Part shown: piece after piece, positions 12,065-32,000 of the stretch
How the letters are laid out: every line of letters begins with the position of its first letter
Position numbering within the stretch: position 1 is the first letter of the stretch
Source: Patescibacteria group bacterium
GTDB lineage: Bacteria; Patescibacteriota; UBA1384; XYA2-FULL-43-10
Length of the DNA: 32,000 nt
Assembly (NCBI GenBank): GCA_041674405.1
Contig: JBAYVT010000002.1
Span: 120,001-152,000 of the forward strand
Reading direction: 5' to 3'
Notes under the pieces: generated by a model
What the model saw: only the letters and a program-made list of their open reading frames with translations
Databases searched by the model: none
What the model was told of the DNA's origin: nothing
Program-made: the position numbers and the translations under genes

Positions 12065-12078
12065 GCTTATCAATATTA

Positions 12079-12087
12079 TGATATAAT
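12079..12087 (+). promoter_or_regulatory. Extended -10 promoter element, unit C
   Basis: TGaTATAAT at 12079-12087. The -35 is poor. Confidence 0.4.
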
Positions 12088-12143
12088 GCTCTTGCAGAAC
12101 GCCAACAGATTTTCCACGTCGGATAACGAAGGAGGGTTGTGCT

Positions 12144-12206: not shown

Positions 12207-12284
12207 GTCCTAGCAAGAGGACCGCGGTGGCTGGATCAACAGCAAGAATCGGATCATCCGCCCTGGGCGGATGGCGAGATTAAA

Positions 12285-12312
12285 ACGACGGCTGTCCCTA
12301 GCCGTCGTTTCT
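12285..12312. terminator. Hairpin terminator, plausibly bidirectional (unit C on plus, mnmA on minus)
   Basis: ACGACGGCT-gtccct-AGCCGTCGT is a perfect 9-bp stem, flanked by AAAA on the 5' side and TTT on the 3' side. Confidence 0.55.
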
Positions 12313-14878: not shown

Positions 14879-16141
14879 CTATCCAATTGGGCTTATCTTT
14901 CTTAATTTCTCAATTATTCCCGGCAATACTTCCATAAGGCGATCTATTTCTTCTTCGGTGGTGTATCTCCCAATTGTGAATCGAATTGAGCTATGTGCTC
15001 TTTCTTCGGGGTATCCAAGCGCCATTATCACATGTGAGGGTTCAAGGGAACCCGATGTACAAGCCGAACCTGTAGAGGCCGCGATCCCTAGCATATCCAA
15101 ATTGAGCAGAATCGACTCGCCTTCGATGCCGGCAAATGAAATATTTACATTATTCGGGCTTCTGCAAATATCCGTGCCATTCAATTTGGCATTTGCAATA
15201 TTATCGACAATACCCCTGATTAATTTTTCTCTCAATTTCAATGATTTTTCCGTTGCATTAGTCATTTTAAGAGATGGAAAATCCTCTGACACAATCGCCC
15301 CATCGGTGTCAGCGGCATCGCGGATTACTAGTTCGGCCGCCTTGGCAAAACCGACTATGCCCGCGACATTCTCCGTGCCCGCTCGCTTCTTGTATTCTTG
15401 TCCACCACCGGTGATTTCCGGCTTAAGCGGGGTGCCTTTTTTGGCGAATAAAAGGCCGACTCCCTTCGGCCCATAAATTTTATGAGCCGTCATTGTAAGA
15501 AGATCGACATGCAAATATTTAGTTCCCATTTCGAAATACTCTGCTGCTTGCACTGCATCGGTATGGAAATAAATTTTTTGGGCATTGGGGTTTTTTTCAA
15601 GCCGACCCAGGTTTTCCTTCTCAATCATCTTGCCAATTTCGCGGATCGGCTGTGCTGTGCCAATTTCATTATTTACATACATTACAGAAACCAGGGCAGT
15701 GTTTTTACGGATTGCTTTTACTACTTGCTGGCTATTGATTACGCCATCTTGCTCCGGGCTTATGTAGGTAGCTTCGATTTTCCCCTGTTTCTCTAGATCT
15801 TTTACGGTATCCAAAACTGCATGATGTTCAAATGTTGAAGTTACAACATGAGGTTTTTTATTCATGCCTTTATAGTCTGGCAACATCGATTCGATCACGC
15901 CGCGGATAGCCAGATTATCCGATTCCGACCCGCCAGATGTAAATAGAATTTCGCTTGGAGCGCAATCAAGAAAAAATGCCAAAAATTCTCTGGCTTTGTC
16001 GACTGCCGCTCTCGCCTCCTGCCCAAACCCGTGAACCGACGAAGGATTGCCGAAACTCACGCCAAAATATGGCGTCATTGCTTCAATAACTTCCGGCGCA
16101 ACTGGCGTGGTCGCAGCATTATCTAGATATATTCTCTTCAC
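14879..16141 (-). CDS. nifS: Cysteine desulfurase (NifS/IscS family)
   Basis: N-terminal IYLDNAATTP, PLP-lysine context TMTAHKIYGPKG, and active-site loop STGSACTSG. GTG start. Confidence 0.92.
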   Translation of the reverse strand: MKRIYLDNAATTPVAPEVIEAMTPYFGVSFGNPSSVHGFGQEARAAVDKAREFLAFFLDCAPSEILFTSGGSESDNLAIRGVIESMLPDYKGMNKKPHVVTSTFEHHAVLDTVKDLEKQGKIEATYISPEQDGVINSQQVVKAIRKNTALVSVMYVNNEIGTAQPIREIGKMIEKENLGRLEKNPNAQKIYFHTDAVQAAEYFEMGTKYLHVDLLTMTAHKIYGPKGVGLLFAKKGTPLKPEITGGGQEYKKRAGTENVAGIVGFAKAAELVIRDAADTDGAIVSEDFPSLKMTNATEKSLKLREKLIRGIVDNIANAKLNGTDICRSPNNVNISFAGIEGESILLNLDMLGIAASTGSACTSGSLEPSHVIMALGYPEERAHSSIRFTIGRYTTEEEIDRLMEVLPGIIEKLRKISPIG

Positions 16142-16362
16142 TTATCTTCCTTTGATTTCTCAACGATCGATACTACTTTTCTTAAATCAGAAACGCACTT
16201 CTTGCAATTTTCCTGTTTGGACAAATTATCAAAATCAGATTTAGATATTAAATAAGCCACCGGCTTGGAATACCTGACAACCTCAAACACATCTCCGTCC
16301 TCAACTTCTTTAAGAACCTTAGAAATGTTATTTTGCAATTCGTTTACGTTGATATTTTTCAT
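16138..16362 (-). CDS. Phd/YefM-family antitoxin-like protein (no adjacent toxin)
   Basis: The N-terminus MKNINVNELQNNISKVLKEVEDGDVFEVVRYSKPVAYLISKSDFDNL matches the Phd/YefM pattern. The C-terminal tail carries CKKC. Its stop overlaps the nifS GTG (GTGA). Confidence 0.55.
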   Translation of the reverse strand: MKNINVNELQNNISKVLKEVEDGDVFEVVRYSKPVAYLISKSDFDNLSKQENCKKCVSDLRKVVSIVEKSKEDK

Positions 16363-16451: not shown

Positions 16452-19400
16452 TTAAGATTTAGAATTTCTCTTTTCCATCTCAATCTTTTTATTTACGGCA
16501 GAAATTTCTTCATCCGTATCAAACCTTACCGGTTTTGGCAGAGTGTAACCTTCCTTGGTAGCTAAAATTGTGTACCTACCCCGTTTCAAAATCGCCGAAA
16601 ACTTACCTTTGTCATCAGTTACCGCAGTCTTTACAAGCCTTGTGTTATCTCCGGTCATTATCCTAACCAACGTTAGGCCGATAGGCTCGCCCTTATGTCG
16701 GTCTACCACCATGCTCCATGGCGACTTTCTTATGACCAGTGAGAAATTGATAACCCAAAGCAGAATATAGCCGGCAAGGATCAGATAATTTAACAAATTT
16801 GGGTCATGAATTAAATTGTTCAAGACCAATATGGTACCGGCCGTAAGTACAACAATCGAAGCATAATTGAAGAATCTTTCCATTTTTCTAAGCCAACCCA
16901 AGATTGCATGAATACCAGAAAGGCTTTTGCCATTTATACTCATTATGATCGTCGGCACCAAAAATCCTTTGGTATAGCTATCAATCTCATATATTTTCCC
17001 TGTGTCAAAATCATAATATTGATCCGGTTTTGGTGCGAGCTGGTACTTGTCTTTCTTCGCGATGATTTTGTATTTGCCCGGAGGTTCGGCGAATCCGTAC
17101 ACGCCTGATTTATCGGTGGTTGTTGTCTCAATAACCCTTTCTGTGCCATCTTCGCCTACTTTAATCAAGCTAACCATCGCTCCAGAAAGCGGCAAACCGG
17201 TTCCATCCTCGAGCACTTGGCCCCATTTTTTGCGTTTCTTTTTAACCGTACCGAAAGATAGAATGGAATAAACAATTATATGAATGACTTCCTTGAGTGA
17301 GAATAAAGTTATTAAGTTTGTTGCGGGTGCCAATCCGGCGACAACTACTGCCATGCCCAGAGCTGCTGCGGCAGTCACTGGCGGAGCAGCCTCTTTTGAG
17401 ATACCAACAGCTGCATAAACTTTTTCTATTCCCCCTGCAACAATATCGATTGAAACCGCCACATCTTCGACGCCGCCGACAATGCCACCAATAATAACTT
17501 CACCGATTGTTTCTTTTCGTACATTTACTGACGCAGCAGCCTTCACATCACCGAATGAAGCTTGAACGGTGTTTTCAAATGAGCCAACTTCCTTACCTGC
17601 GGTGAATAATCCGGTTTGGTCAATCTCCCCGCCACCATTCATAACCGACCACACGATAATTGCTGTTGGAATTTCTGAATCATCTGAGGCAAAAGCTTTT
17701 GCACTAAACTGCACGGAGTCTTCAACTTTTATTTTCGCACTTGTCGGTGAAATGATAATGTATGATGCAGTTTTTTCCGGATTTCCCAGAGTTGTCACCT
17801 CAGACGCAGTAGAAAAATCAGTTTCAACGTTGCTATTATTTCTTGCCTTAAGCCTATAAGCATAATTCGTAGAAGCTGCAAGGCCTGTGTTTATAAATCC
17901 GTCGCTTCCACCCCAGTCGGCATACAATTGCCAATCGGGACTATCGGAAAATGCCCCATCGGAATGCCTGACATACTTACCTGCGGTGTCATTGTAAATC
18001 GCATATCGTGTGTTAGCTGGGTTGCCGTTTTGGTTAATCGCAATTTTTACTGATGACTCGGAAACTACTGAAAGAATTGGGGCATCTGGTGTGTTCGCAA
18101 GAGTATAAGATGTAGCAAAATTTGACTTTTCCGTTCCTTTCCTATTGGTCACGGTAACTTGGCGAGTATATGCCGTATTCGGAGCAAGAGATTGTTCTAG
18201 CCAGGACGAGGCAGAAGCTGCAAGTGTTCCCGAGAGCGGATTGCCAGCGGCATCTAACACTGCCCAACTGGTGTGATCATCGTCGGTATTTGACCAAACC
18301 CAATTAATCTGGCTGGTAACAATGTCTGTTCCCCTGAAATCTGTAGAGGGTGTAGGCCCAAGGCAATTCGCCGTTGTGAAATTTATGATTGCAGAATAAT
18401 TCCCCGCGCCATTCTGGTTTGACGTTGCGGACACCTTGGCGTAATACTTTGTTTTTCTTGCAAGGCCCGATAAAGAAGTGGCTGTTGTGCTGATATCCGA
18501 AATTGTGCCTTTATTTGAAGCTCCGGAATCCGTTCCGTACGAAAGAGTATATTTATCCGCGCCCTCTGGCGCAATCCATGTCAGGTTCGCCGAAGTTCTG
18601 CAAACGGCATTTGCTTCTAGGCTCGCTGGAGCAGCTGGCGGAGTGACTTTTGCCGAAGATGGAGAATAAGTTGTGTCGGTATTGTCCCCATTTCTTGCTT
18701 TGGCCTTGATCCAATACTGGGTATTTGGATCAAGATTAGCCAATGTATATGATGTACTTGTCTGCCAGGACATGCCGGCGGGATCGGTAAAATCCGTGCC
18801 ATTTATTGAATATTGGATCCAATAGTTTGTTCCTGATGGATTCAAACTTGGGCTAATTGTTCCTGTTACGAAATATGCCCCCGCCACCGTTGAAACCGTC
18901 GGCATATTGGCAAGCGTGTACTTTGGAGATGAATAGGCGCTTGTTGAGTTGCCGGCGTCATTAAACGCAACAACTTTAGCACAATATTGTGTATTTATAT
19001 CCTTACCATCAACGTCTTGCGAGGTTTCCCCGGCACCAGTCGTATAGTCGGGAGAATCTGGATAAGAAGCCTGTGAACAATCAGAATTCGGAGTGGTAGA
19101 AATATAAACCTTGAATCCGGTTTCATCAGATGAGTTGTCGTCCCAAGTCACTTGGAAAGAATCGTTTTGGATGGTGCCTATTGCTGCATTAGTTGGCGCA
19201 CTCGGCGCTGTAACACAAGAGCCGGTGGGAGAAATATTCCAATCGGTATTACTTCCCCCATCCGTAGAATAAGTAGCACAGAAAGAGGCACCCGAATTGG
19301 TAGAATTTGAGATGGTGGCGTACGAAATAGTTGCGGTGGCCGGGTTAATATTCCAGCCACCAGAACCACCAGACCTCTTAAGAACTACATGGCTTCCCGA

Positions 19401-22400
19401 AGTTCCGGTTACCGTCCATGTGCCAGATATCGTTTGGGTCGAGCCCGCAGAAAAGGATAAGGTTTTGCCTGCAGTAGCGGCAGTGAGGTTATTAAAAGTC
19501 GTATCTCCCTCTATCAAGGAGTCACCAGTTAGCGTAACTGTACCGCTCCCAGGAGTGAAGATACCGCCTGCATGGTTCCAACCGCCAGATACACTCATGG
19601 TGGATGGAGCACTGAAGCTAGCATTACCGTTTAAGATGAAATTACCAATGTTCATCGAAGGGTTATTTGTGATTCCATCAACATCGGTCTGGTTGGTTCC
19701 ATCACCAATTGTAAGATTGTTAGTAACACCAAAGCTACCGGAAGATAGAGTCAAAGTTTTGTTTCCAACAAAGCTCTGCCAGATAAAACCGGTCATATCG
19801 CCAAAAGAGTGATAAGGACCTGAACCAACATTATAGGTACCAATGACGGCACCAGTCGAGCCGTTAAGCTTTGTTATGGTGTTGCCGCCAATGCTCGTTA
19901 CCCATACATTGCCGTCGCCATCAATTCCCGGATGGTCGCCATTGCCGATCGAATAAGTTCCGATTACTGCACCAGTCGAGCCGTTAACTTTGTAGACCGT
20001 TCCGCTATTAACAACCCAGACATTGCCGCTGCCATCAACTGCCAGATTAGCACCAGGAACCGAGTAGATATCAATGACAGCGCCGGTCGAACCGTTAAGC
20101 TTGGTAATGCCAATATCGCCGTCGCTAGCCGTCCAGACATTCCCATCACCGTCGACTGCTATGCTAAAAGGAGCGCCGTTAACCGAATAAGTGCCGATCA
20201 GTGCACCAGTTGAGCTGTCAAGTTTAGTAACGTTACCACTTCCGTGATTGCAAATCCAAACATTGCCACTACGATCAGCCGCCACTCCCGAAGGACTAGT
20301 ACCCGTTGAATATGTGCCCATGACTGCACCAGTCGAGCCATTAACCTTATTAATATGGCTGCTATCGTAGGGGACCCAGACATTGCCAGCATTATCAACG
20401 CCCGGGTTACCACCACCGACCGCATAAGTGCCGATCAGTGCGCCGGTCGAACCATTGAGTTTAGTAACGTTGCCGCTGTAAGGATTGCCGACCCAGACAT
20501 TGCCACTGCCATCAACTGCCACACCATAAGGACCAGTACCCACCGCGTAAGTTCCAATGACGGCACCAGTTGAACTGTTAAGTTTGGTTATATTGTTGCT
20601 ACCGCTATTAGTCACCCAAACATACGGTGTTACCGCTGGATCCAGCAATTCTAGGTTATAATAATTTGCCGCCGTAATGTTTGTGTTAGAAGAAGCACGA
20701 TATATAAAGGTAGAAGTCGAAGCAGTAAATGTACCCGTTTTAACAAACGGCGTGCCCGAACCGGTCAAAGTTATTGTCCGATTTGAAGCATCGAAGGTAC
20801 CAGCATTGATCGTCAGTATGTTTGTAGTTGTGATATCCCCGGCTGCAGTGAAAGTCGTTCCCGCATGATCAAGGTAAAGATTGTAGTAAGTGGTCGCCGT
20901 AATATTAGTTGCCAATGCTCCGGTATACTTGAGGGTTGATGTGCCCTCTTGGAAAGTTCCGGTTACTACCAATGGCGTTCCTGGCGCGGCCAAAGTAATC
21001 GTTCTGGAGGATGCAGCAAATGTGCCGGCATTGATGGTAAGGACTCCATTGATTGTGATATTTCCGGCAGCAGTAAAGGTTGTGCCGGTATGGTCTGCAG
21101 CGTAGAGGTTGCAATAGGTAATAGCATTAATGTTTGTTGCGCTTGTTCCTTGGAATTTGACTGTCGATGTACTTTCGGTAAATGTGCCGCTGATGGATAG
21201 TGGATCACCTGATTCTGTCAAAACTAAGGTAGTATTATCCAGATTGACAACAGCAGTTGCCGGGATTTTAAGATTTGGGATAGTGGAGGTGGGAGCAGAT
21301 GATGAATTAGGTCTCCAGGTATCAGTGCCTATGACATAGAGTATCTGGGAGGTTAGAGTTGCTTGATTGTAGGGCATAGCTAGGTCATTGGTTGCATTAC
21401 CAATATCAAAGAGGATATCAGCATCAGACGAAACTGAACCATCGTATTGTGATAAATCGGTATTGGATAGTGTTTGGGCAGTACCATTACCGACGACCAA
21501 ATGCTGCTCAAAGAGAGTAACTCCAGTAATATCTCCCGATGTGTACTTGGTAACAGCATTGGCTCGATGGGATTCAGTCGCGCCATCGATGAATACCGTA
21601 ATTACATCACCGGCAGAGGGTTCGGTAACGCCAGAAATCGTCCAGGAACCAGAAGCAGTGGTGCCTGTAGCTGCATCCAAGGTGCCATTGATCGCTACCT
21701 TGACCGTCTCACCATCAGCACAAGCGGTTGATTCATCATACTGCTTACAAGTGCCGGAGATAGAGAAGGATGAACAGCCACTTGTTACAGTTGGAGCAGG
21801 AAGGGTACCATTGAACGAGGTCCAAGTCCCAGTCGTTGGCAAGACAGTGGGAGCACCGGCACTACCCCAGTCCACATAAGCCGACTGATCAGCAGGCGCA
21901 AGAAGTTTGCTGGTGTCCGACAACAGGTACCAACTACTGTCCCATGGATCTACTGCCAAAACCCTATTACTTGTATTGGTGTAATAAGGATTACTCCTAG
22001 CATCTACACTCGCATAAGTATACGACCCATTATAGCTTGAATCGCCCGCTCCAGAAAAAGTATACGACGAACATGCGGAGCATGATCCGGTTAAACTAAT
22101 ATTCCAGCCGGTATTTCCCCCGCCGTCAACTGAGTAAGTCGCACAGAAACTACCTGTATTACTAGACTTAGAAACATTGGCGTAGGATATTGCAACATTA
22201 TTACTTGCAGATAAATTCCAGTTGGCACCGCCCGATGGAGCTAAAGTAATTAAGTTACCGGAAGTCCCAGCAATATTAATTGCATAATTGAAATTATAGT
22301 TTGAACCCGAGTTGAAAGTTAGGGTTGAGGGCGCAGTTGTGTTGGTAAATGTACGCGTGACCGACGTTGCCCCAGTGAAGGTGAAATTTGTATTAGCATG

Positions 22401-25400
22401 CTCAGCCGTAAGGTTGTAATAAGTTACTGGTGTAATATTTGTTGCGGAAGAACCTGTATATTTTATCGTTGAAGTCGAGTAAGTAAATGTACCTGTGGCT
22501 ACGAAAGGTGTACCTGATCCAGACAAAGTGATGGTTTTATTTGATGCATTAAATGTGCCGGCATTTATTGTCAAAACATTGTTTGCGGTGATGTCGCCCG
22601 CCGCAGTGTAGGTTTGGCCAGCTTTATCGATGTAAAGATTGTAATAGGTCGCAGAAGTTACATTAACCGGACCTGTACCTGTGTATTTTACAGTTGAAGT
22701 AGAAGCGGTGAATGTTCCGGTTTTAACAAACGGCATGCTAGTTCCAGATAAAGTAATTGTCTTATTTGATGCATCAAAGGTTCCGGCATTGATGGTAAAA
22801 ACACCAGTTCCGTTTGAACCAGTTGAGATATCACCGGCTGCTGTAAAAGTTGTTCCTGCGTGATCTAAATAAAGATTATTATAGGTAGTTGATGCAATAT
22901 TAGTCGCAGAAGCGCCTGTGTATTTGACTGTGCCAGTCATACACTGAAATGTACCGTTGATCACAAACGGCGTACCAGAACCGGAAAGGGTGATGGTACC
23001 TGTCGGCGAATCATTAAATGTACCAGCATTAACGGTGAAAACATTTGTTGATGTAATATCCCCTGCTGCGCTAAAGATGGTCCCTGCACGATCTAAATAA
23101 AGATTGTAATAGGTAGTCGCTGTAATATTCGTTGCCAACGAGCCAGTATATTTAACTGTGGATGTAGAAGGTGTAAAAACGACATTATTTACAAAAGGAG
23201 TACCTGATCCAGACAAGGTAATAGTTTTATTGGACGCATCGAAAATCGAGTCATTGGTCAAAACATTAGTGACATTTATATCGCCCATGGCTGTAGATAC
23301 TGCTGTGGTTACTAAGTGGAGGTTGTAATAGGTGGTAGAGGCAATGTTTGTTGCCGCTGCGCCGTAATATTCTACGGTTGAAGTTGATGCCGTAAAAGTA
23401 CCAGTAACAACAAATGGCGTTCCCGTTGACATGAATGTAATAGTCTTATTAGAGGCATCAAAGGTGCCAGCATTGATGGTAAAAATATTTTCCACCTTGA
23501 TATTTCCAGCCGCAGTAAATGTAGTACCTGCATGGTCCAGATACAGATTATAATAACCAGGAACCATTCCCGAACCCATTGCAGTTACGTTTGTCGCCGA
23601 AGCACCGGTATATTTGATCGTTGAAGTTGAAGATTGAAACGTTCCGTTATTAACAAATGGCGTGCCCGAACCAGATAATGTGATTGTTTTATTGGATGCA
23701 TTAAATTCACCAGTGGTAATGCTTAAGACACCAGATACATCAATATCGTTATTTGCTGTCCAAATCCCCGAGCCATCATTGAAGGTCAAATTATTAAAGG
23801 CCGATCCTCCCGTCATATTTCCGGAAAGAGTTTTATCAGCTCCACCCGTCTGAAAAGTAACGGTTCCGGAATTGTTGTCAAATGTTCCGCTTGAATGATT
23901 CCAATTTCCATTAACAATAAAATTATTAGATGATGCGGGCGCACTTAATGACCCGCCCGAAATTGTGACATTACCAGCACTAATATCATGTGCCCCAGCG
24001 GTTAAGGTACCGGATGAAACAAGGAGATTGTTTGTAACATCAATATTGCTGGAAAGAGACCAGGCTGAAGATGGGATCGAATAATAAATCGTGCCTCTTA
24101 CATAATTTATAATTGCATTTGAAACAGATGGAGTTATTTTCTTAATTGTCATCGCAACGCCAAAGCTTGAATCGTTAACATCATTTGGCGTCCAAGTTAA
24201 TCCCCACAGATTTCCATCCCCACCAAACGGAACATAATCCTCTGTCCCCGACCATAATGCATCCGCAGATTGATTGGTGCCCCCAATGGTACCAGACTTA
24301 ATGATTTCAATAATATCATCGGAAACAGGAGGCGAACTACCCATCCTTTTTGCTTCCATTTTAATACCTGTAACCGTTGCATTGGTTGGAATATTAAAAC
24401 CAAAATTTGTCGCTTTTAGATAATTAGAGCGTTTTCCTTGGGGAATACCAACAATTCTCGCATAATTTCCATCATCAGCAGTGATATCTTCGGGAGTTGA
24501 CCAAGGACCATCTCCATAGCTTGCATCATTGGTTCCTGTTCCACATCCCAATGTGGAACTAGTACTTCCCCCGCCGTTCTCACCTGCGATTGTAAGATTA
24601 TAAAATTTCTGCCCAGAACCCAATATGATTGAGAAGTCTCCGCTTGTCCCATTAAAATTTATTGTAGAATTTCCTTCATTGAAAGTAACATTTGAAGAAT
24701 CCCAATCACCTGCAATATTAATTATGTGGCTTCCAGGGCTAAAGCTACCTGACGTCATAGTAAAACCATCCGCAATCGTAATATCTCCAGCTGCAATAAA
24801 GTCTGTATTCGCATGGTTGATGACTAAATTATTATACGTCACGGAAGCCAAATTTGTATCTGATGATCCTTCGTAGGAAATTGTTGAAGTTGACGGAGTA
24901 AAGGTACCGGTCACAACAAACGGGGTTCCACTCCCTGATAAAGTAATGGTTTTATTGGAAGCATCAAATGTGCCTGCATTGATAGTAAGGACTCCAGAAA
25001 CGGTAATGTTCCCTGCTGCAGCAAAGGTAGTACCAGTCTTGTCTGCCGCGTAGAGATTGTAATAAGAAAGAGCATTAACATTCGTAGCGCCTGATCCCTG
25101 GAATTTAATGGTGGAAGTGCCAATTGTGAAGGTGCCGGTGATAGAAAGTGGTGTGCCGGAGGCGGTTAATGCTAGTGTTGTGCCGGTAAGGTTGACGATG
25201 GCTGATGTCGGAATTACAAGGTTAGAAATGGTGGATGTTGGAGCATCAGTAGCAGCCGGTTGCCAAGTGTTGGAAGCCAAAACATAAAGCTTCTGGTCGG
25301 TATCTGTTTGGGTGCCTGACTCGGGCAGTGTTAAGTCTTTGGTTGTGGCATTAACTTCAAAGAAGATATCTTCATCAGACGAGACAGAGTTATCGTATTT

Positions 25401-28400
25401 CTCCATATCAGCATTTGAAAGAGTTTGGTTATCAGCTGAACCGATGGATAAATGTTTTTCATAAAGTGCTATGCCGGATACATTACCGGAGACATACTTT
25501 GTCACTGCATTTGCTTCATTGGCATCAGCAACACCATCGACAAAGATGGTGATAGTGTCGCCAGCCGATGGGGCTGTTACTCCGGTGATAGACCAGGACC
25601 CGCTTGAAGTTGTACCGGTAGCCGCATCGAGGCTCCCATTGATTGCTACTTTGATCGTTTCGCTGTCAGCACAATTCGAGGATTCGTCATATTGTTTGCA
25701 GGTACCGGAGATGGAGATGCTGGCCGGCGGAAATGCCCAATGATGGTTATTTCCACCGTCATATCCGCCAGTCGTGGCATTTACCAAGCTTCCTCCAGTT
25801 GCATCGGAATCGGTGACATTAACATAAGAAGCAGGTGGGCTATCCTGGACAACATTAAAATTCCAATGGTTGGTAGGTGTAGATGAAACCATAAATATTC
25901 TAGTACCTACTGCTCCGCCATTGATATCAAGGCCCATGATTGAATAAGTTGATCCAGCATGGAATGTAAGTTTAGAGGAAGGGGTAGTATCAGTAAAGAC
26001 CCCATTGATAGTTGCCGAATCTGCAAAATAAACACCATTTGCCGACGCATTAGTAATAGTAATGCTGTTAAAATCATGATTTCCATTTGTTCCACCAGCA
26101 GTGATGGTCTGTAAATCACTACCATCCAAGGTTAGTGTTCCGGTACCAGAAGTAAAGATGCCAGTGGCCGAATTCGTATAATCGCCTGCAAGATAAAATG
26201 CAGCCGTACTTGAAGCCGTGAGAGTATTACCAGCGTCAATAATAACATCTCCATCAACGTTAACTATGGGATCGTTTGTTTCGAATGACAATACGGCAGT
26301 TAATGCGCCTCCTCCAACATGCAAATTATTTGAAACATTTAAAGTGCCTGCCTGAACATTATGGGTACCTGAAAAATTTTCACGCGCTATCTGAAGGTTA
26401 TAATATGTAGTCGCGGTTACATTTACAGCGGCGCCGACTGGGTCCGGGCAATCATAAAATAATGTTGAATTGTTGGCAGTGAAAGTGCCGTTGATCACAA
26501 AAGGAGTGTTAGTTCCTAATAGTGTAATTGTTTTATTTGAAGCGTCGAATTCACCTGCATTAATTGTTAAAAGATTTGAAACAGTCATATCCCCAGCCGC
26601 GGTAAAAGTCGACCCAGTTCGATCAAGATAAAGATTGTAGAATGTCGTCGCCGTCACATTTGTCGCAGATGAACCCTTATACTGAACGGTAGATGTGCCC
26701 TCCTGAAAAGTAGCGTTTATATTCACAAAAGGCGTGCCTGAGCCATTCAAAACAATTGTTTTATCGGAGGCATTAAAGGTTCCTACATCTAGCGTCAAAA
26801 CGCTGCCAACGGTAATATTTCCAGCTGCGGTAAAGGTGGTACCAGTATGAACCAAATATAGATTATAATACGTCGCACTAGTTACATTGGTAGCGCTCGA
26901 TCCGGCATACTTTATGGTTGAAGTAGCTTCTTGAAAAGTACCATTTACAACAAAAGGTGTACCAGAACCATATAGATAAACTGTCTTATCCGATCCGTTA
27001 TATATCGTCCCGGTCTGAATAGTGAAAACTCCGTAGACCGAGAACGAGCCGGAAGAAAGCGGAGTAAATGTCGTGCCCGAATGGTCGAGGATTAGATTGT
27101 GGAACCCGAGTAACGCAACGTCAGTTGCTGACGCACTCTGATATGTGACGGTTGAAGTGTCGTAATTGAAGGTACTGCCCGTCTCCATTCTAAGAGGCCT
27201 CGACGAACTTTGTCCTGAGCCAGTAATTACTAAAGAATTATTATCCAATGTCATCGTAGACGATGCTTCGGCATATGATTTCGGCACAGTTGATGTGGTT
27301 CCACCACCGGATGCAGGCCGCCATGTATTATTTGCCTTAATTATAATCTTTTGGTCTGCATCAGTTTGGGTTCCGACTGCCGGCAGGGTTAGATTGTTTG
27401 ATCCGTCAATTTCGAAAAAGATATCTTCATCGGAGGAGACGGAATTATCGTATTTAGAGATATCGTTGTTCGATAATGTTTGATTATCGTCAGAACCTAG
27501 ATACAAATGCTTTTCGTAAAGGCTAATTCCTGTAATATTGCCCGAACCATCGTATTTGGTAACAGCATTCGCTTCGTTACCGTCAGCCACTCCATCGATA
27601 AATACGGTAATTGTGTCCCCAGAAGCAGGTGCTGTAACACCGCTTATGCTCCACGAACCTCCGGATGTGGTTCCGGTTTGGGCTTGAATAGTACCATTTA
27701 CCGCAACTTTTACAGTCTCTGAATCAGCGGCATTTGTCGATTCGTCATATTGCTTAGCAGTCCCTGAGATTAAAATTGTGGCAGGCCCACCTCCGCCTTC
27801 AGAAATAATAACCCCCGGCTCGACTTCTCCTGAAGCATCCCAGTCGTAAGGAGTCGGGTCACTAACTGGATCAGCATTAAACCAAGTATACCCAGGGTAA
27901 AAACTACCCAAAGTTGATGAAACAGCCCAAGATCCTCCCATATTTCCACTAAACCAAAGATAAGAGTTATTTTCATTTTTATAGACAGGGTACGGCGACG
28001 AACCGATATCTCCAAAGTATTGATCGTTATATGCAAACGTACCATTTGCATTCGTATTACCAGCATTTGTGCCTGTATATGTATGGCCCGGATCTCCTCC
28101 CGGCGTTACGCCGCTTGGCGCCGGAGCGGTTCCCAGATTGGCCGTCCAGCTATTGCTTCCGGGAAGCGCGCCCTCCATAAGATAATAGTGTACATCCATC
28201 ATCGCATCATTAAGAACGTCGCTAAGCATATATGCTCCGCCCCCGTCCCAGTACAAGTACATATTATTAGCGTTTTTCCAATAGTCACTTCCATAGGCAT
28301 CCGTTCCGCCGTAAGAGTATTCGCCGTTATAATTGGCATCTCCTGCTCCCGCAACAGTCCATGTGGTTGTATTAGCAGCTAGAGCTTTAGGAGGCTTTTC

Positions 28401-28628
28401 AAAATTGATTGATGGGTTGACCATAACAAACCCAAGAACCGAAATCGCCACAATATATAAGGTCAAGAACATCCAATGAAAGGGTGACGAAGATCCCGAA
28501 AGATGCCACTTGTAATACCAACCGAATTTCATGCGAAGAGCATTGTGCCATGGAGAAAATCGGGAGAATGTGGTTCTCGTGCTTTTTTGTACTTTCATTA
28601 TTTCCCTGTCAAGCTCCACAGTTGTCAT
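16452..28628 (-). CDS. Giant (4058-aa) multi-domain surface protein
   Basis: 12,177-nt uninterrupted ORF. It has an N-terminal TM (FHWMFLTLYIVAISVLGFVMV), three 153-154-aa modules, and at least 15 copies of a roughly 75-aa unit with a beta-helix look. A roughly 8-blade propeller-like block has the pattern G.P.G.A.D..GNVWV....N.VTKLNGSTGA.IGTY. FN3-like units (..SFQVTWDDNSSDETGFKVY..) and a Big_2-like domain follow. The C-terminus is TM, CarboxypepD_reg-like, 2 TM, CarboxypepD_reg-like. Confidence 0.9.
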   Translation of the reverse strand: MTTVELDREIMKVQKSTRTTFSRFSPWHNALRMKFGWYYKWHLSGSSSPFHWMFLTLYIVAISVLGFVMVNPSINFEKPPKALAANTTTWTVAGAGDANYNGEYSYGGTDAYGSDYWKNANNMYLYWDGGGAYMLSDVLNDAMMDVHYYLMEGALPGSNSWTANLGTAPAPSGVTPGGDPGHTYTGTNAGNTNANGTFAYNDQYFGDIGSSPYPVYKNENNSYLWFSGNMGGSWAVSSTLGSFYPGYTWFNADPVSDPTPYDWDASGEVEPGVIISEGGGGPATILISGTAKQYDESTNAADSETVKVAVNGTIQAQTGTTSGGSWSISGVTAPASGDTITVFIDGVADGNEANAVTKYDGSGNITGISLYEKHLYLGSDDNQTLSNNDISKYDNSVSSDEDIFFEIDGSNNLTLPAVGTQTDADQKIIIKANNTWRPASGGGTTSTVPKSYAEASSTMTLDNNSLVITGSGQSSSRPLRMETGSTFNYDTSTVTYQSASATDVALLGFHNLILDHSGTTFTPLSSGSFSVYGVFTIQTGTIYNGSDKTVYLYGSGTPFVVNGTFQEATSTIKYAGSSATNVTSATYYNLYLVHTGTTFTAAGNITVGSVLTLDVGTFNASDKTIVLNGSGTPFVNINATFQEGTSTVQYKGSSATNVTATTFYNLYLDRTGSTFTAAGDMTVSNLLTINAGEFDASNKTITLLGTNTPFVINGTFTANNSTLFYDCPDPVGAAVNVTATTYYNLQIARENFSGTHNVQAGTLNVSNNLHVGGGALTAVLSFETNDPIVNVDGDVIIDAGNTLTASSTAAFYLAGDYTNSATGIFTSGTGTLTLDGSDLQTITAGGTNGNHDFNSITITNASANGVYFADSATINGVFTDTTPSSKLTFHAGSTYSIMGLDINGGAVGTRIFMVSSTPTNHWNFNVVQDSPPASYVNVTDSDATGGSLVNATTGGYDGGNNHHWAFPPASISISGTCKQYDESSNCADSETIKVAINGSLDAATGTTSSGSWSITGVTAPSAGDTITIFVDGVADANEANAVTKYVSGNVSGIALYEKHLSIGSADNQTLSNADMEKYDNSVSSDEDIFFEVNATTKDLTLPESGTQTDTDQKLYVLASNTWQPAATDAPTSTISNLVIPTSAIVNLTGTTLALTASGTPLSITGTFTIGTSTIKFQGSGATNVNALSYYNLYAADKTGTTFAAAGNITVSGVLTINAGTFDASNKTITLSGSGTPFVVTGTFTPSTSTISYEGSSDTNLASVTYNNLVINHANTDFIAAGDITIADGFTMTSGSFSPGSHIINIAGDWDSSNVTFNEGNSTINFNGTSGDFSIILGSGQKFYNLTIAGENGGGSTSSTLGCGTGTNDASYGDGPWSTPEDITADDGNYARIVGIPQGKRSNYLKATNFGFNIPTNATVTGIKMEAKRMGSSPPVSDDIIEIIKSGTIGGTNQSADALWSGTEDYVPFGGDGNLWGLTWTPNDVNDSSFGVAMTIKKITPSVSNAIINYVRGTIYYSIPSSAWSLSSNIDVTNNLLVSSGTLTAGAHDISAGNVTISGGSLSAPASSNNFIVNGNWNHSSGTFDNNSGTVTFQTGGADKTLSGNMTGGSAFNNLTFNDGSGIWTANNDIDVSGVLSITTGEFNASNKTITLSGSGTPFVNNGTFQSSTSTIKYTGASATNVTAMGSGMVPGYYNLYLDHAGTTFTAAGNIKVENIFTINAGTFDASNKTITFMSTGTPFVVTGTFTASTSTVEYYGAAATNIASTTYYNLHLVTTAVSTAMGDINVTNVLTNDSIFDASNKTITLSGSGTPFVNNVVFTPSTSTVKYTGSLATNITATTYYNLYLDRAGTIFSAAGDITSTNVFTVNAGTFNDSPTGTITLSGSGTPFVINGTFQCMTGTVKYTGASATNIASTTYNNLYLDHAGTTFTAAGDISTGSNGTGVFTINAGTFDASNKTITLSGTSMPFVKTGTFTASTSTVKYTGTGPVNVTSATYYNLYIDKAGQTYTAAGDITANNVLTINAGTFNASNKTITLSGSGTPFVATGTFTYSTSTIKYTGSSATNITPVTYYNLTAEHANTNFTFTGATSVTRTFTNTTAPSTLTFNSGSNYNFNYAINIAGTSGNLITLAPSGGANWNLSASNNVAISYANVSKSSNTGSFCATYSVDGGGNTGWNISLTGSCSACSSYTFSGAGDSSYNGSYTYASVDARSNPYYTNTSNRVLAVDPWDSSWYLLSDTSKLLAPADQSAYVDWGSAGAPTVLPTTGTWTSFNGTLPAPTVTSGCSSFSISGTCKQYDESTACADGETVKVAINGTLDAATGTTASGSWTISGVTEPSAGDVITVFIDGATESHRANAVTKYTSGDITGVTLFEQHLVVGNGTAQTLSNTDLSQYDGSVSSDADILFDIGNATNDLAMPYNQATLTSQILYVIGTDTWRPNSSSAPTSTIPNLKIPATAVVNLDNTTLVLTESGDPLSISGTFTESTSTVKFQGTSATNINAITYCNLYAADHTGTTFTAAGNITINGVLTINAGTFAASSRTITLAAPGTPLVVTGTFQEGTSTLKYTGALATNITATTYYNLYLDHAGTTFTAAGDITTTNILTINAGTFDASNRTITLTGSGTPFVKTGTFTASTSTFIYRASSNTNITAANYYNLELLDPAVTPYVWVTNSGSNNITKLNSSTGAVIGTYAVGTGPYGVAVDGSGNVWVGNPYSGNVTKLNGSTGALIGTYAVGGGNPGVDNAGNVWVPYDSSHINKVNGSTGAVMGTYSTGTSPSGVAADRSGNVWICNHGSGNVTKLDSSTGALIGTYSVNGAPFSIAVDGDGNVWTASDGDIGITKLNGSTGAVIDIYSVPGANLAVDGSGNVWVVNSGTVYKVNGSTGAVIGTYSIGNGDHPGIDGDGNVWVTSIGGNTITKLNGSTGAVIGTYNVGSGPYHSFGDMTGFIWQSFVGNKTLTLSSGSFGVTNNLTIGDGTNQTDVDGITNNPSMNIGNFILNGNASFSAPSTMSVSGGWNHAGGIFTPGSGTVTLTGDSLIEGDTTFNNLTAATAGKTLSFSAGSTQTISGTWTVTGTSGSHVVLKRSGGSGGWNINPATATISYATISNSTNSGASFCATYSTDGGSNTDWNISPTGSCVTAPSAPTNAAIGTIQNDSFQVTWDDNSSDETGFKVYISTTPNSDCSQASYPDSPDYTTGAGETSQDVDGKDINTQYCAKVVAFNDAGNSTSAYSSPKYTLANMPTVSTVAGAYFVTGTISPSLNPSGTNYWIQYSINGTDFTDPAGMSWQTSTSYTLANLDPNTQYWIKAKARNGDNTDTTYSPSSAKVTPPAAPASLEANAVCRTSANLTWIAPEGADKYTLSYGTDSGASNKGTISDISTTATSLSGLARKTKYYAKVSATSNQNGAGNYSAIINFTTANCLGPTPSTDFRGTDIVTSQINWVWSNTDDDHTSWAVLDAAGNPLSGTLAASASSWLEQSLAPNTAYTRQVTVTNRKGTEKSNFATSYTLANTPDAPILSVVSESSVKIAINQNGNPANTRYAIYNDTAGKYVRHSDGAFSDSPDWQLYADWGGSDGFINTGLAASTNYAYRLKARNNSNVETDFSTASEVTTLGNPEKTASYIIISPTSAKIKVEDSVQFSAKAFASDDSEIPTAIIVWSVMNGGGEIDQTGLFTAGKEVGSFENTVQASFGDVKAAASVNVRKETIGEVIIGGIVGGVEDVAVSIDIVAGGIEKVYAAVGISKEAAPPVTAAAALGMAVVVAGLAPATNLITLFSLKEVIHIIVYSILSFGTVKKKRKKWGQVLEDGTGLPLSGAMVSLIKVGEDGTERVIETTTTDKSGVYGFAEPPGKYKIIAKKDKYQLAPKPDQYYDFDTGKIYEIDSYTKGFLVPTIIMSINGKSLSGIHAILGWLRKMERFFNYASIVVLTAGTILVLNNLIHDPNLLNYLILAGYILLWVINFSLVIRKSPWSMVVDRHKGEPIGLTLVRIMTGDNTRLVKTAVTDDKGKFSAILKRGRYTILATKEGYTLPKPVRFDTDEEISAVNKKIEMEKRNSKS
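19790..20630 (-). repeat. Coding repeats: about 8 NHL/YncE-like beta-propeller blades (about 40 aa each)
   Basis: A recurrent DNA word cc(c)agacattgcc(a/g)ctgccatc(a/g)ac is the reverse complement of D(G)SGNVW(V). The protein period is ..GNVWV.N..(S)GNVTKLNGSTGA(V/L)IGTY.VG..P.G(V/I)A(V)D... Boundaries are approximate. Confidence 0.7.
21303..21761 (-). repeat. Copy 3 of the 153-154-aa module (ISGTCKQYDESTACADGETVKVAINGTL...TDTWRPNS)
   Basis: Aligned by eye with copies 1 and 2. The codon phase agrees with the ORF. Confidence 0.8.
22395..23765 (-). repeat. Longest run (about 6-7 units) of the roughly 225-nt / 75-aa tandem coding repeat
   Basis: The unit is TFTAAG(N/D)IT...VLTINAGTF(D/N)ASNKTITLSGSGTPFV..GTFT.STST(I/V)KYTG.SATN(I/V)T..TYYNLYLDHAGT. 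It splits into three sub-units of about 25 aa. Boundaries are approximate. Confidence 0.7.
25251..25712 (-). repeat. Copy 2 of the 154-aa module (ISGTCKQYDESSNCADSETIKVAINGSL...SNTWQPAA)
   Basis: Aligned by eye; phase consistent. Confidence 0.8.
27309..27770 (-). repeat. Copy 1 of the 154-aa module (ISGTAKQYDESTNAADSETVKVAVNGTI...NNTWRPAS)
   Basis: Aligned by eye; phase consistent. Confidence 0.8.
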
Positions 28629-28643
28629 TCCGTTTTATATTTA

Positions 28644-31600
28644 TTAGGTAATTGATTTTTTCTTTAGTTCCAACTTTTTACGAAGTGCAGCCATATTATC
28701 TTGATTGGCAAATTCCACCGGATGATCAAGCTCATATCCCTCCTTCGCTGCAAAAATGTTATATTTGCCTTTCCTTAACATAGCAGAGAATTTTCCCTTT
28801 TGGTCCGAAACAGTAGTTCTGACTAGTTTGTGGCTGTCTGAATTCATCACCCGAATCAAGGTTAGAGGGACCGGCTCTCCGGTATTCGATTCAGCCACAA
28901 TACTCCATGGCGAATTTCTAATGATGAAAGATGCGTTGATAATCCAAAGCAAAAAGTATCCAACAACAATAACGTAATTTAAAAGAGTGTGCTCGTGTAT
29001 GACGTTATTGGCCGCTAATATTGACCCGAGTGCAAGTAATACGAATGAAAAATATACAAAATATCTTTCTAATTTCCTAAACGATGCGACTAATTTTGCG
29101 ATATTACCGAGCTTCTTTCCGTTGACGTTCATAATAATTGTGGGAACAATCAAACCTTCTTCGTAGCTCAAAACATTAAATATCTTTTTGGGGTCAAAGT
29201 TATAAAATTGGTCTTCAATAGATGCAACCGTGTGTTTTTCTTTGCTCGCAATGACACGATATTTGCCAGGTCCAGCAGCAAAACCATATACCCCGTCTTT
29301 ATCAGTAAATGACGATTCTATGACTTTCTCAGTATCAGCATCGTCCACCTTAACCAGGCTTACCTGAGCCAGATATAAGGGCATTCCTGTTCCATTTTCA
29401 ATTACTCTTCCCCATTTTTTCTTCTTTCGTTTTAAAGTTCCAGCCGAAAGAATCGAGTAAGACAAAACATGATATATTTCATTCAGAGAAAACAGCGATG
29501 ATGCTGTGGCCATCGGAGTCATTGCAGCTGCCATTCCAGCAGCACCCAGCGCTGCAGCTGAGGTTATTGGGGTCGCTGCTTGTTTAGATATCCCGACCGC
29601 TTGGTATATTTTTTCAATTTGTCCTGCAGTGGTATTAATGACACCAGAAATTAACGTCGCACTCTTAACAATTCCATCGACTAAATTATTAATGATTGTA
29701 TCGTTTTTTATAATAACGGTGGCGAAAGATTGGCTCTCACCCACAGAGGCTTCAATTGTATTATTATATGTTCCAGTATCTGGTCCCGCAGTGAAAAATC
29801 CATTTTTATCGATTGCTCCGCCTCCATTTACCACTGACCAAACAATATTGACGTTGGATATTTCTTTGTTATCTAAAGTGAATGCTCGGGCTTTGAACTG
29901 AAGGGTTTCATTTGGCCCGATTGTGGCGGTTACCGGATCAATGGCGATTGAAGCAATATTTGAAACAGGGCTATCTCCACCTTTTGGACTATCTGGAAGT
30001 GTTAAATTCTCTCCGGGCGATGAGAAAGAAGTTTCTATGCTATCTCCATTTTTTGCCTTAACCAGATAATCATATTGCGTGCCGACCAAAAGATTGTAAT
30101 TAATAATGCCCGAACTTCCCCCCCACACGTTTCGCGTTTGCCAAACGGCGCTATTGCCCAGGGATCCATCAGCTTGCACATACTTTCCGGAAGTTTGATT
30201 ATAGATAGCGTATTGGGTCGAAGGCGGATTGTTATTTGAGTTGATGATGATCTTTAAAGAATTACTAGATAATGCATTGACCATCGGTGCATTTGGTTGA
30301 TTAGCCAGCGTGTAGAAAGGAGCAGTATATGATCCAGGCGAGTCATTACCAGAATTGGTTGCCGTAATTCTGGCGCAATATTGAGTATTAACACTTTTTC
30401 CTGAGATAAATTGCGAGGTCGTATTTGCACCCAAAGCATAATCCGGGTAATCCGGATATGAGGCAAACTCGCAATTATCACTTGTGGCAGTTGAAATAAA
30501 GATATTAAAGCCAGTTTCGCTTGAAGAGTTATCGATCCAATTCAGAGTGAAGAAAGTTGTGTCCACCCCTACAACCGAAGCCCCTGTGGGGGCAGCAGGG
30601 GTCGCTTCGCAGATCGTAGATGAACCAATCTGCCAGCCAATATTACCCCCCACATCAATAGAATAGTTTGCACAGAATTGGATTCCTGAATTAGTTGATT
30701 GAGAAATTGAAGCGTGAGAAACTACGGCTTTCGCCGGATTTATTATCCAATTTCCTGAACTGCCAGACCCTCGTAGATTAATATTGTGGCCACTAGACCC
30801 AGAAATACTCCATGTGCCGGTAATTGTTTGGGTTGAGCCGGCTGAAAAAGATATGGTCTTTCCACCCGTAACGGCCGTGAGATTGTTGAAAGTGGTATTT
30901 CCCTGAATCAGAGAATCGCCATTCAAAGTTACTGTCCCGTTGCCGGGAGTGAACGTGCCACCATTATTGTTCCAGCCGCCCGAAAGATTAATGTTTGAGG
31001 GAGCGTTAAAGTTCGCATTACTCTTTAATGTAAAATTTCCGCCTATGTTAATTGTTGGATTATTTGCCAATCCGTCAACAGTGGTTTGATTAGCGCCATC
31101 ACCAATCTGAAAATCGTTAGCGATATTAAACGTACCATTTGATAAAGTTAAAACTTTTGGATCGGCAAAAACTTGTCGAGCAAATCCTGTGGAATCTCCC
31201 ATTGAAATATAGGGGTTGCTAACCGGGTAGGTACCGAGAATTGCCCCTGTTGTTCCACTTAACTCCTTAATATTATTTGTATTGACCACCCAAGCATTGC
31301 CATTTTGGTCGATTGAGATACCATTTGGCCAACCATCTCCGTTAGCAAAGGTGCCAACAATATATGTACCCAGGACAGCACCGGTTGAGCCATTTAGCTT
31401 GCTCACGCTGTTGTCATAATGATTAGTGACCCAAACATTCCCAGATTGGTCAATGGCTATTCCATAGGGGTTTCCATGAACGGAATATGTACCTATAGTG
31501 GCGTTCGTCGAACCGTTAATTTTAGTAACGCTGTAATTGTCCCAGTTTCCTACCCAAGCATTACCGCTGCTATCGACTGCAATGCCCATTGGCCTGCTGC

Positions 31601-32000
31601 CAACCGCATGGGTAAAGATGGTTGCACCGGTCGTGCCATTCAGCTTCATAACATTATTACTTCCAGTATTTGCAACCCAGACGTTCCCGTCTCGATCAAT
31701 TGCAATACCTTCAGGATTAATACCCACACCATATGTGCCGATGGTTGCACCGGTCGCGCCACTTAGCTTGGTAACACTGCTGCCACCAGTATTAGTAACC
31801 CAAATATTCCCACTGCCATCGACTGCCACCCCCCAAGGAGCATTGCCAGTCGGGTATGTACCAATAGCAGTGCCTGTAGCTCCGTTAATCTTTGAAACGC
31901 TATTTGCCCAGTAATTCGCCACCCATAAATTATTATGACCATCCACTGCGAGACCATAGCATGGGCTTTCTGACACCGGATACGAACCGACGGTTGATCC
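28644..32000 (-). CDS. Giant surface-protein paralog (N-terminal part lies beyond the right window edge)
   Basis: The frame is open from the stop at 28644 to position 32000 (3357 nt, exactly 1119 codons). The sequence upstream of the track's Met at 31976 (..GSTVGSYPVSESPCYGLAVDG) continues the blade repeat, so that Met is internal. The domain order matches the C-terminal 1400 aa of the 4058-aa protein: propeller, beta-helix-like segment, FN3-like, Big_2-like, TM/CarboxypepD_reg-like module. Confidence 0.9.
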   Translation of the reverse strand, partial: GSTVGSYPVSESPCYGLAVDGHNNLWVANYWANSVSKINGATGTAIGTYPTGNAPWGVAVDGSGNIWVTNTGGSSVTKLSGATGATIGTYGVGINPEGIAIDRDGNVWVANTGSNNVMKLNGTTGATIFTHAVGSRPMGIAVDSSGNAWVGNWDNYSVTKINGSTNATIGTYSVHGNPYGIAIDQSGNVWVTNHYDNSVSKLNGSTGAVLGTYIVGTFANGDGWPNGISIDQNGNAWVVNTNNIKELSGTTGAILGTYPVSNPYISMGDSTGFARQVFADPKVLTLSNGTFNIANDFQIGDGANQTTVDGLANNPTINIGGNFTLKSNANFNAPSNINLSGGWNNNGGTFTPGNGTVTLNGDSLIQGNTTFNNLTAVTGGKTISFSAGSTQTITGTWSISGSSGHNINLRGSGSSGNWIINPAKAVVSHASISQSTNSGIQFCANYSIDVGGNIGWQIGSSTICEATPAAPTGASVVGVDTTFFTLNWIDNSSSETGFNIFISTATSDNCEFASYPDYPDYALGANTTSQFISGKSVNTQYCARITATNSGNDSPGSYTAPFYTLANQPNAPMVNALSSNSLKIIINSNNNPPSTQYAIYNQTSGKYVQADGSLGNSAVWQTRNVWGGSSGIINYNLLVGTQYDYLVKAKNGDSIETSFSSPGENLTLPDSPKGGDSPVSNIASIAIDPVTATIGPNETLQFKARAFTLDNKEISNVNIVWSVVNGGGAIDKNGFFTAGPDTGTYNNTIEASVGESQSFATVIIKNDTIINNLVDGIVKSATLISGVINTTAGQIEKIYQAVGISKQAATPITSAAALGAAGMAAAMTPMATASSLFSLNEIYHVLSYSILSAGTLKRKKKKWGRVIENGTGMPLYLAQVSLVKVDDADTEKVIESSFTDKDGVYGFAAGPGKYRVIASKEKHTVASIEDQFYNFDPKKIFNVLSYEEGLIVPTIIMNVNGKKLGNIAKLVASFRKLERYFVYFSFVLLALGSILAANNVIHEHTLLNYVIVVGYFLLWIINASFIIRNSPWSIVAESNTGEPVPLTLIRVMNSDSHKLVRTTVSDQKGKFSAMLRKGKYNIFAAKEGYELDHPVEFANQDNMAALRKKLELKKKSIT

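Follow-up and report, generated by a model that had tools for sequence, protein, structure and literature searches.

Candidate Phyla Radiation bacteria (CPR, Patescibacteria) are thought to live attached to hosts, and the molecules that make this contact are largely unknown. In Vampirococcus lugosii, the ten longest proteins span 1392-4163 amino acids (aa), and giant membrane proteins of the CPR are proposed to let the cell recognise a host and attach to it (PMC8080830); in Gracilibacteria, too, large extracellular proteins have been noted (PMC6851277). Here, we analyzed a stretch of 32,000 nucleotides (nt) from an uncultured, ultra-small Patescibacteria group bacterium (assembly GCA_041674405.1, contig JBAYVT010000002.1, positions 120,001 to 152,000; hereafter the window), in which two giant genes, termed A and B, lie in tandem on the minus strand. 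The results indicate that the genes are probably co-transcribed and that their products are giant membrane-anchored CPR surface proteins, most likely used for attachment to a host cell or surface, a reading to which we give a probability of roughly 0.6.

A and B resemble the described CPR giants in phylum-level host, size range, membrane localisation and proposed attachment role, and also in their mixture of interaction domains (FN3, propeller, PKD/Ig), housekeeping-gene surroundings and small genome. Compared by description, the two differ in that the published giants carry generic domains only, with no shared leader or anchor of three transmembrane (TM) helices and two sandwiches reported (PMC8080830, PMC6851277). 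A and B join an already known kind of protein, which in itself would not surprise specialists; the pairing of a conserved N-terminal leader with a conserved C-terminal membrane module (Mem) appears undescribed. No description of either piece turned up in the giant-protein literature, in searches not aimed at these end pieces. Both are widespread in Patescibacteria metagenome data, and the large family of A/B relatives with conserved membrane-end pieces is uncharacterised. The pair offers a testable handle on the export and retention of giants, easily recognised sequence marks by which CPR genomes can be screened for candidate attachment proteins, and defined targets for localisation and topology work in the few cultivable CPR-host pairs.

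Two paralogous giant genes and the integrity of their sequence

Gene A starts with ATG and contains zero internal stops, and gene B, upstream of it on the minus strand, stays open up to base 32000 (Table 1). The two genes share a frame with TAA TAA ATA TAA between them, so they are separate genes without a read-through product. The 15-nt gap was scanned and contained neither a promoter-like nor a terminator-like site, which is compatible with co-transcription and makes it plausible. A BLASTP comparison of B with A returned two blocks, B 1-672 with A 2688-3334 (48.9% identity, E 8e-174) and B 523-1115 with A 3469-4054 (47.5% identity, E 1e-171), spanning propeller, capped solenoid-like segment, FN3 and Big_2-like domains and membrane module. 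The domain order is therefore identical in A and B, with about three more FN3 units in A. At ~48% identity, the pair is consistent with an old local duplication, and the locus devotes at least 19.5 kb of coding sequence to two surface proteins (B at least 7.3 kb, A 12.2 kb). The sequence-only reading that preceded this work had described two co-oriented giant open reading frames (ORFs) 15 nt apart with equal ordered C-terminal architecture; the ORF coordinates and in-frame stops agree with the first description, and the BLASTP blocks, at 47-49% identity, with the second. It had given no strand for the genes, and the triplicated super-modules of A, the N-terminal leader, the wide, family-defining occurrence of the C-terminal module and the single-gene state of the relatives inspected (all below) go beyond it. 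Its suggestion to extend the contig succeeded in part: B was lengthened to at least 2437 aa, and the extended contig ends inside B, short of its N-terminus. An exact DNA pattern search of metagenome contigs for the continuation of B in the longer, 155,940-bp NCBI/JGI contig gave no match.

We then compared the window with other assemblies. Positions 6452-32000 are 100% identical to ENA contig ERZ27247358 k141_1736407, which ends within gene B, in its repeats, and a Logan contig ends within gene A. Repeats often break assemblies, and these contig ends are what speaks for the long ORFs being an artefact of repeat collapse, expansion or chimerism. We hold such an artefact to be exceedingly improbable. 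Copies of the internal DNA repeats match one another at just 64-75%, and no exact repeat in the 19.5-kb region is longer than 25 nt, below the value of k = 141 to which the name of the ENA contig points, so that collapse or expansion is unlikely. Over the stretches compared, the Logan contig agreed with the window at 100% and the ENA sequence at 99.97%, with one 7-nt indel outside the giant genes. NCBI and JGI hold the same A protein with differing start codons, homologs of 2000-6500 aa number in the hundreds, and chance cannot yield a 12-kb open frame.

The surrounding genes were equally consistent among sources. Identical sequences of the ABC permease, HD-domain protein, MnmA, FolD and IscU were found in NCBI, JGI, Logan and ENA, and those of the cysteine desulfurase and methyltransferase in three of these four. 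The neighbours MiaA, RecG, ComEA, MnmA, FolD, IscU and IscS had exact NCBI matches from a 'Patescibacteria group bacterium' metagenome-assembled genome (entries of the small neighbour genes, MFA7244053-66). The 7-nt indel lies somewhere inside window 2360-6451. The miaA gene is intact in the window (2400-3557, 385 aa) and split into 175 aa and 163 aa in the ENA version (L001 20046-21070), for which the indel may be the cause; either the strains vary here or one of the two versions contains an assembly error.

The leader and the C-terminal membrane module

The start of A differs among three pipelines, which chose codon 4 (GTG), M11 or M53 (the last in JGI), and A is on record only as the 4055-aa version with the GTG start; exact look-ups of the 4058-, 4048- and 4006-aa versions gave no match. 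Because the conserved leader motif begins at residue 10, the start probably lies at or near M1 or V4 rather than at M53. The core of this leader is HNxLRxKFxWYYxWH; a TM helix comes straight after the full motif, and H28, W37, Y38, W41 and H42 (A numbering) were invariant in an alignment of 24 leader sequences. Neither Pfam nor NCBIfam has a model of the motif, and the leader is no PDB unit either. A candidate A-L-A cleavage site occupies residues 83-85 of A, about 12 residues past the TM helix. Histidines stand at positions 28, 42 and 51 of A (two invariant, one nearly so) beside two invariant tryptophans, a pattern that suggests metal binding or a membrane-interface helix.

To collect relatives, we ran an exhaustive HMMER search with the C-terminal 857 aa of B as the query. 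The search returned 6570 proteins at E < 1e-3 and 298 at E < 1e-30, many of them 2000-6500 aa long; a word-indexed homology search gave one match for the C-terminal 409 aa and three for a 28-sequence profile. The named matches belonged to Candidatus Berkelbacteria and unclassified Patescibacteria and were labelled 'GLUG motif-containing', 'fibronectin type III domain-containing', 'carboxypeptidase-like regulatory domain-containing' or 'hypothetical'. In a related set of 161 proteins (383-5960 aa; Mem counted at E < 1e-10), Mem was the most common shared element and formed the extreme C-terminus of 66, with varying passengers ahead of it (Calx-beta, InlB B-repeat, GLUG, FN3, NHL). The leader occurred in A and 28 other proteins, never beyond residue 200, and Mem closed 22 of these 29; in about half of the complete Mem proteins, an ordinary signal peptide replaced the leader. 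By this distribution, many giant CPR proteins appear to share a modular plan, in which leader and anchor enclose freely shuffled passenger domains.

The leader-bearing proteins without Mem ended in other ways. Three (P0040, P0087 and P0107) finished with a single TM helix and a basic tail, and two (P0015 and P0105) were complete genes without a C-terminal TM segment, with a gene for a MacB-type ABC transporter no more than ~1 kb after them; no C-terminal TM segment was seen in P0037 or P0150. Two loci (L013, 15974-18942; L014, 12883-15118) held complete leader giants of 4313 aa and 3657 aa without Mem, each with one or two small ORFs after it and, next to these, a gene that fuses ABC_tran + MacB_PCD + FtsX, and the L013 giant was preceded by PMT-type and GT2 glycosyltransferase genes. 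This pattern may represent an alternative, transporter-linked handling of the C-terminus.

The tandem arrangement was also sought at the relatives' loci. Both giant relatives inspected were single genes amid housekeeping genes, the smaller Mem-bearing genes at four other loci were likewise single, and pattern-based locus searches yielded one genome and four metagenome loci, all with smaller relatives. Among the inspected loci, the tandem was seen solely at A/B. On another Patescibacteria contig of the same ENA sample (L010 8996-20968), a 3164-aa Mem-anchored giant gene sits between rplA and rplJ-rplL, a cluster that is normally tightly conserved.

By this C-terminal module we provisionally define a 'Mem-anchored' family of Patescibacteria surface proteins, to which A and B belong. 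Mem, with which both A and B end, is ~315 aa long and consists, in order, of a TM helix, an amphipathic helix, KKKRKK, a first transthyretin-like sandwich, a TM hairpin and a second such sandwich. PF13620 matched it in two stretches (E 2e-16). An AlphaFold model of a 330-aa query, built with a 28-sequence alignment, reached a predicted local distance difference test score (pLDDT) of 82 and placed the sandwiches at 75-170 and 244-325 around a helical hairpin (172-213 / 217-238). In Foldseek, the sandwiches matched SdrD B, SpaA/CnaB (CnaB2), the transthyretin-like domain of carboxypeptidase D and NOMO of the BOS complex, and both searches assign them to the CarboxypepD_reg/transthyretin-like (prealbumin) fold. 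The complete module matched no solved structure in Foldseek, in contrast to its sandwiches alone, and as a unit it has no Pfam or NCBIfam model and no PDB entry.

The alignment of 28 Mem homologs contained 9 invariant and 12 nearly invariant columns. Across these homologs, helix 1 comprises 26 uncharged hydrophobic residues and helix 2 is an amphipathic helix of little length; the stretch that comes next (KKKRKKW in A) has a net charge of +4.6. The segments before and after the hairpin have +2.5 and +1.4, respectively, and the loop of the hairpin is close to neutral (about 0). The positive-inside rule is an established guide to membrane topology. Read by this rule, the charge pattern points to three TM helices and puts both Mem sandwiches, by prediction, in the cytoplasm.

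Ectodomain anatomy and proposed function

The anatomy of A was derived from self-comparison and scans with hidden Markov models (HMMs). The results revealed three super-modules (~residues 80-930, 930-2200 and 2200-3160), each with a ~150-aa domain (X-dom), an array of ~75-aa repeats (R75, consensus TYYNLYLDHAGTTFTAAGNITV..LTINAGTFDASNKTITLSGSGTPFV..GTFT.STSTVKY) and a conserved cap (consensus end ..SN.G..FCATYS.DGG.NT.WNI.). The first and third open with copies of another domain (N-dom), the second houses a further domain (U-dom), and the third adds the propeller. R75 occurs 19 times in A and at least 15 times in B, which has one X-dom copy, outside the window. Within the 161-protein set, R75 was found in 18 proteins and caps in 17, and X-dom and N-dom were confined to A and B; a separate X-dom search gave just nine short fragments elsewhere, and no N-dom homologs were found outside the A/B locus. 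U-dom is also present in P0075, a Mem-anchored protein of 904 aa. Nothing credible was found for N-dom, X-dom, U-dom or R75 in lenient Pfam scans, and PDB sequence searches with X-dom, U-dom and N-dom gave no match.

In A and B, Pfam recognised only fn3, NHL/Vgb_lyase/SGL, CarboxypepD_reg/NOMO-like and a marginal Big_2 (E 0.054), and NCBIfam only YVTN repeats, with TIGR02276 in both proteins; the propeller of B matched Pfam NHL at E 4e-19. An AlphaFold model of A 2205-3165 was all-beta with a mean pLDDT of 74, rising to 85-94 in the propeller and cap segment and ~80 in the first half of X-dom, a sandwich. Among solved structures, Foldseek ranked 1L0Q first for the propeller (E 1e-17, 26% identity); it is the YVTN propeller of an archaeal S-layer protein. 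BtuG, a B12-binding surface lipoprotein, came next, then virginiamycin B lyase and YncE, and a viral fold search in BFVD returned generic propellers only. By Pfam, TIGR02276, AlphaFold and Foldseek, A and B belong to the NHL/YVTN beta-propeller superfamily. The domains that the sequence-only reading had listed were thus recovered by Pfam and structure prediction (NHL/Vgb_lyase, fn3, a weak Big_2 and CarboxypepD_reg twice). Its view that the whole protein fits no named family stood up in Pfam, NCBIfam, exhaustive HMMER and Foldseek searches, and domain content and TM/anchor analysis support the surface-exposed, membrane-anchored nature it had suggested.

The match to 1L0Q also bears on a structural role, in which A and B would be S-layer-like parts of the envelope that build a regular layer or fibrous coat and do not bind a partner. 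Membrane anchoring and a composition very rich in Thr, Ser, Asn and Gly are in keeping with this, as are the leader-bearing relative directly downstream of PMT-type and GT2 glycosyltransferase genes and the Vampirococcus giants, which are held responsible for a fibrous surface (PMC8080830). We nevertheless judge it unlikely, since Pfam and NCBIfam detected no SLH or other S-layer domain, and since the highly variable architecture among relatives, with X-dom and N-dom nearly restricted to this locus, is more in line with recognition modules that diversify than with a lattice protein, which would be conserved. A coat role and attachment are mutually compatible.

A second alternative holds that A and B are enzymes displayed at the surface, such as lyases of polysaccharides or cell walls, whose solenoid-like arrays and Vgb-lyase-like propeller would degrade host envelope polymers. 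B scored slightly over the Pfam cut-off for Vgb_lyase (53.1 bits vs 50) and virginiamycin B lyase was among the structural matches, yet identity to the Vgb lyase is only ~17%, the blades have the high regularity of YVTN propellers of the binding type, and scans of A and B detected no family of glycoside hydrolases, lyases or peptidases. Predatory Omnitrophota giants have been proposed to join attachment with carbohydrate degradation (10.1101/2023.11.21.568195), which lends this alternative some plausibility; we still regard it as very unlikely. We favour attachment as the role of A and B, as suggested by their domain types and by the proposals made for other CPR bacteria.

For an attachment protein of this kind, the following arrangement is proposed. 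The basic, His/Trp-rich cytoplasmic leader and the TM helix would insert the N-terminus with its end inside, and the ectodomain of ~3,650 aa would be exported and fold into a long stalk. This stalk would consist of predicted all-beta, solenoid-like R75 arrays, each closed by a cap, with small sandwich domains between them, followed by a YVTN/NHL propeller of ~7 blades and then FN3 and Big_2-like spacers. Mem would bring the chain back into the membrane through its three TM helices, with the two sandwiches on the cytoplasmic side. Without cleavage of the leader (e.g. near A-L-A, residues 83-85), both ends of the protein would be tethered, and variable binding modules would be displayed far from the cell, most likely for attachment to a host cell or surface. 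Gene structure, paralogy, domain content, and the conservation and placement of leader and anchor are established by the analysis; topology, co-transcription and adhesion are inferred.

Several points weigh against this picture. The attachment role is a prediction, and no domain of A or B is diagnostic of adhesion: polysaccharide lyases, S-layer proteins and enzymes contain beta-helix and propeller folds as well. The R75 array was modelled at moderate confidence (pLDDT 60-80) with short, regularly spaced strands as in a solenoid; because no solved beta-helix was among the structural matches listed by Foldseek for A 2205-3165, the strand pattern is what the solenoid reading rests on. N-dom was poorly modelled, and the first two Mem helices reached a pLDDT of 44-65. 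Cytoplasmic transthyretin-like domains would be unusual, as CnaB and carboxypeptidase-regulatory domains are normally extracytoplasmic. Finally, the leader of B is an unverified candidate, its N-terminus lying beyond the contig end.

Table 1. Window coordinates of genes A and B and of their parts (aa, amino acids; nt, nucleotides)
Feature	Residues	Coordinates	Strand	Remarks
Gene A		16452-28628	-	Predicted giant surface protein, 4058 aa; NCBI MFA7244068.1, hypothetical protein WC080_02170
Gene B, upstream paralog		28644-32000	-	C-terminal 1118 aa in window; at least 2437 aa in source contig (L004:2-7315)
Intergenic gap A/B		28629-28643	-	15 nt, TAAATATAAAACGGA, after TAA of B; in-frame stops part B from A
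A, conserved N-terminal leader	10-52	28473-28601	-	Predicted cytoplasmic; IxxIQKSTRTxxPxFxxxHNxLRMKFxWYYxWHxxPxAxxVH
A, N-terminal TM helix (putative signal anchor)	53-73	28410-28472	-	Hydropathy 2.33
A, N-dom, two copies of ~95 aa	84-283	27780-28379	-	Motif YNGxY...W; low pLDDT
A, X-dom copy 1	297-450	27279-27740	-	ISGTxKQYDES...; first half predicted beta-sandwich
A, first R75 array running into cap 1	483-882	25983-27182	-	Predicted all-beta, solenoid-like
A, X-dom copies 2 and 3		25221-25682, 21270-21731	-	52-65% identical to copy 1
A, second R75 array	1154-1361	24546-25169	-	3 copies
A, U-dom (unique)	1360-1510	24099-24551	-	No Pfam or PDB sequence match
A, third R75 array	1580-2098	22335-23891	-	7 copies
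A, cap 2	2100-2205	22014-22331	-	End ..SNTGSFCATYSVDGGGNTGWNIS
A, N-dom copy 3		21729-22013	-	Self-comparison/HMM
A, fourth R75 array	2470-2687	20568-21221	-	3 copies
A, beta-propeller, ~7 blades	2688-2950	19779-20567	-	YVTN/NHL type; pLDDT 85-94
A, all-beta solenoid-like segment and cap 3	2950-3160	19149-19781	-	End ..SNSGASFCATYSTDGGSNTDWNIS; pLDDT ~88-93
A, about five FN3 domains	3160-3650	17679-19151	-	Pfam
A, Big_2-like Ig domain	3656-3740	17409-17663	-	Weak Pfam match
A, membrane module Mem	3741-4058	16455-17408	-	Order of helices and sandwiches in text
B, NHL/YVTN propeller		31221-32000	-	First blades past window edge
B, all-beta solenoid-like segment with cap		30591-31217	-	End ..STNSGIQFCANYSIDVGGNIGWQIG
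B, about two FN3 units, then Big_2-like domain		29601-30590	-	
B, Mem module		28647-29600	-	53% identical to Mem of A

Two further observations concern the neighbourhood. Between the end of A and iscS, a 74-aa PhdYeFM-type antitoxin-like gene (window 16138-16362, minus strand) overlaps the iscS start by 4 nt, with no adjacent toxin partner visible. Between recG (8928-11054) and mnmA (12367-13476), ~1.2 kb (11100-12300) has a G+C of 0.56, compared with ~0.44 elsewhere, and lacks any convincing gene: gene calling on the ENA contig left it empty, its short ORFs had no Pfam match, and Rfam gave only a sub-threshold ar14 hit (24.8 bits vs a gathering score of 58.8). This segment may encode a non-coding RNA, or it may be foreign DNA or what is left of an insertion that has degraded.

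Comparison with known systems

Six known classes of giant or surface proteins were considered and rejected. Type V and trimeric autotransporters do not fit, as Pfam and NCBIfam found no autotransporter or YadA-anchor domain and the C-terminus consists of helical TM segments and beta-sandwiches. For LPXTG/sortase-anchored MSCRAMMs, a regular expression search found no LPXTG near the C-terminus; the LPTTG at 2263 of A is internal with no TM segment after it, and B has none. The giant adhesins of the RTX/type I kind (LapA, SiiE, MpIBP type) were set aside in the absence of GGxGxD and of any RTX family match in A or B, and SLH-anchored S-layer proteins in the absence of SLH in Pfam and NCBIfam, only the propeller resembling an archaeal S-layer domain. 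An Rhs/YD-repeat or contact-dependent inhibition (CDI) toxin is contradicted by the lack of YxYD motifs and by a C-terminus that is Mem and not a toxin. Finally, a giant of the Omnitrophota Archaeovorin type is at odds with the length of A, only 4058 aa, the lack of SecA_DEAD in A and B, and TM segments solely at the two ends.

The Omnitrophota giants (Archaeovorin and Dockerin types) share with A and B an origin in ultra-small bacteria, a mostly extracellular chain with TM regions, and a proposed role in attachment, and they contain beta-helix segments; they differ in exceeding 10,000-30,000 aa, and most carry SecA_DEAD and many TM helices (10.1101/2023.11.21.568195). Giant1-5 of Apilactobacillus kunkeei are likewise described as extracellular and 3,000-8,000 aa long, with consecutive genes that make up a sizeable share of a small genome (PMC12863079); they belong to another phylum, and the likeness is one of description. 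The archaeal 1L0Q protein, a tandem of YVTN propeller and PKD, resembles A and B in its surface propeller followed by Ig-like domains. The match covers ~300 of the 4058 residues of A, and 1L0Q lacks the repeat arrays, caps, leader and Mem.

MSCRAMM and pilin adhesins (SdrD B, SpaA/CnaB) have in common with A and B the prealbumin/CnaB-type sandwich fold and the plan of a long stalk, binding modules and a C-terminal anchor. Unlike them, A and B have no C-terminal LPXTG, and their sandwiches come after the first TM helix, flank a TM hairpin and are probably cytoplasmic. ESPR of autotransporters and YSIRK-G/S of Gram-positive bacteria are conserved N-terminal extensions of very large surface proteins, in which they stand ahead of the hydrophobic segment for export. 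The leader of A resembles them in position, and its motif HNxLRxKFxWYYxWH is unrelated. We tentatively raise a broader idea, which we consider doubtful at present: leader and Mem might form an undescribed, Patescibacteria-wide system of export and double anchoring, whose cytoplasmic ends contact each other or a dedicated partner (a transporter, a pilus or the division machinery) and so govern how attachment fibres are inserted, positioned or made to signal. If this were true, the leader/Mem system would be to monoderm CPR bacteria what the YSIRK/LPXTG or ESPR/autotransporter pairs are elsewhere.

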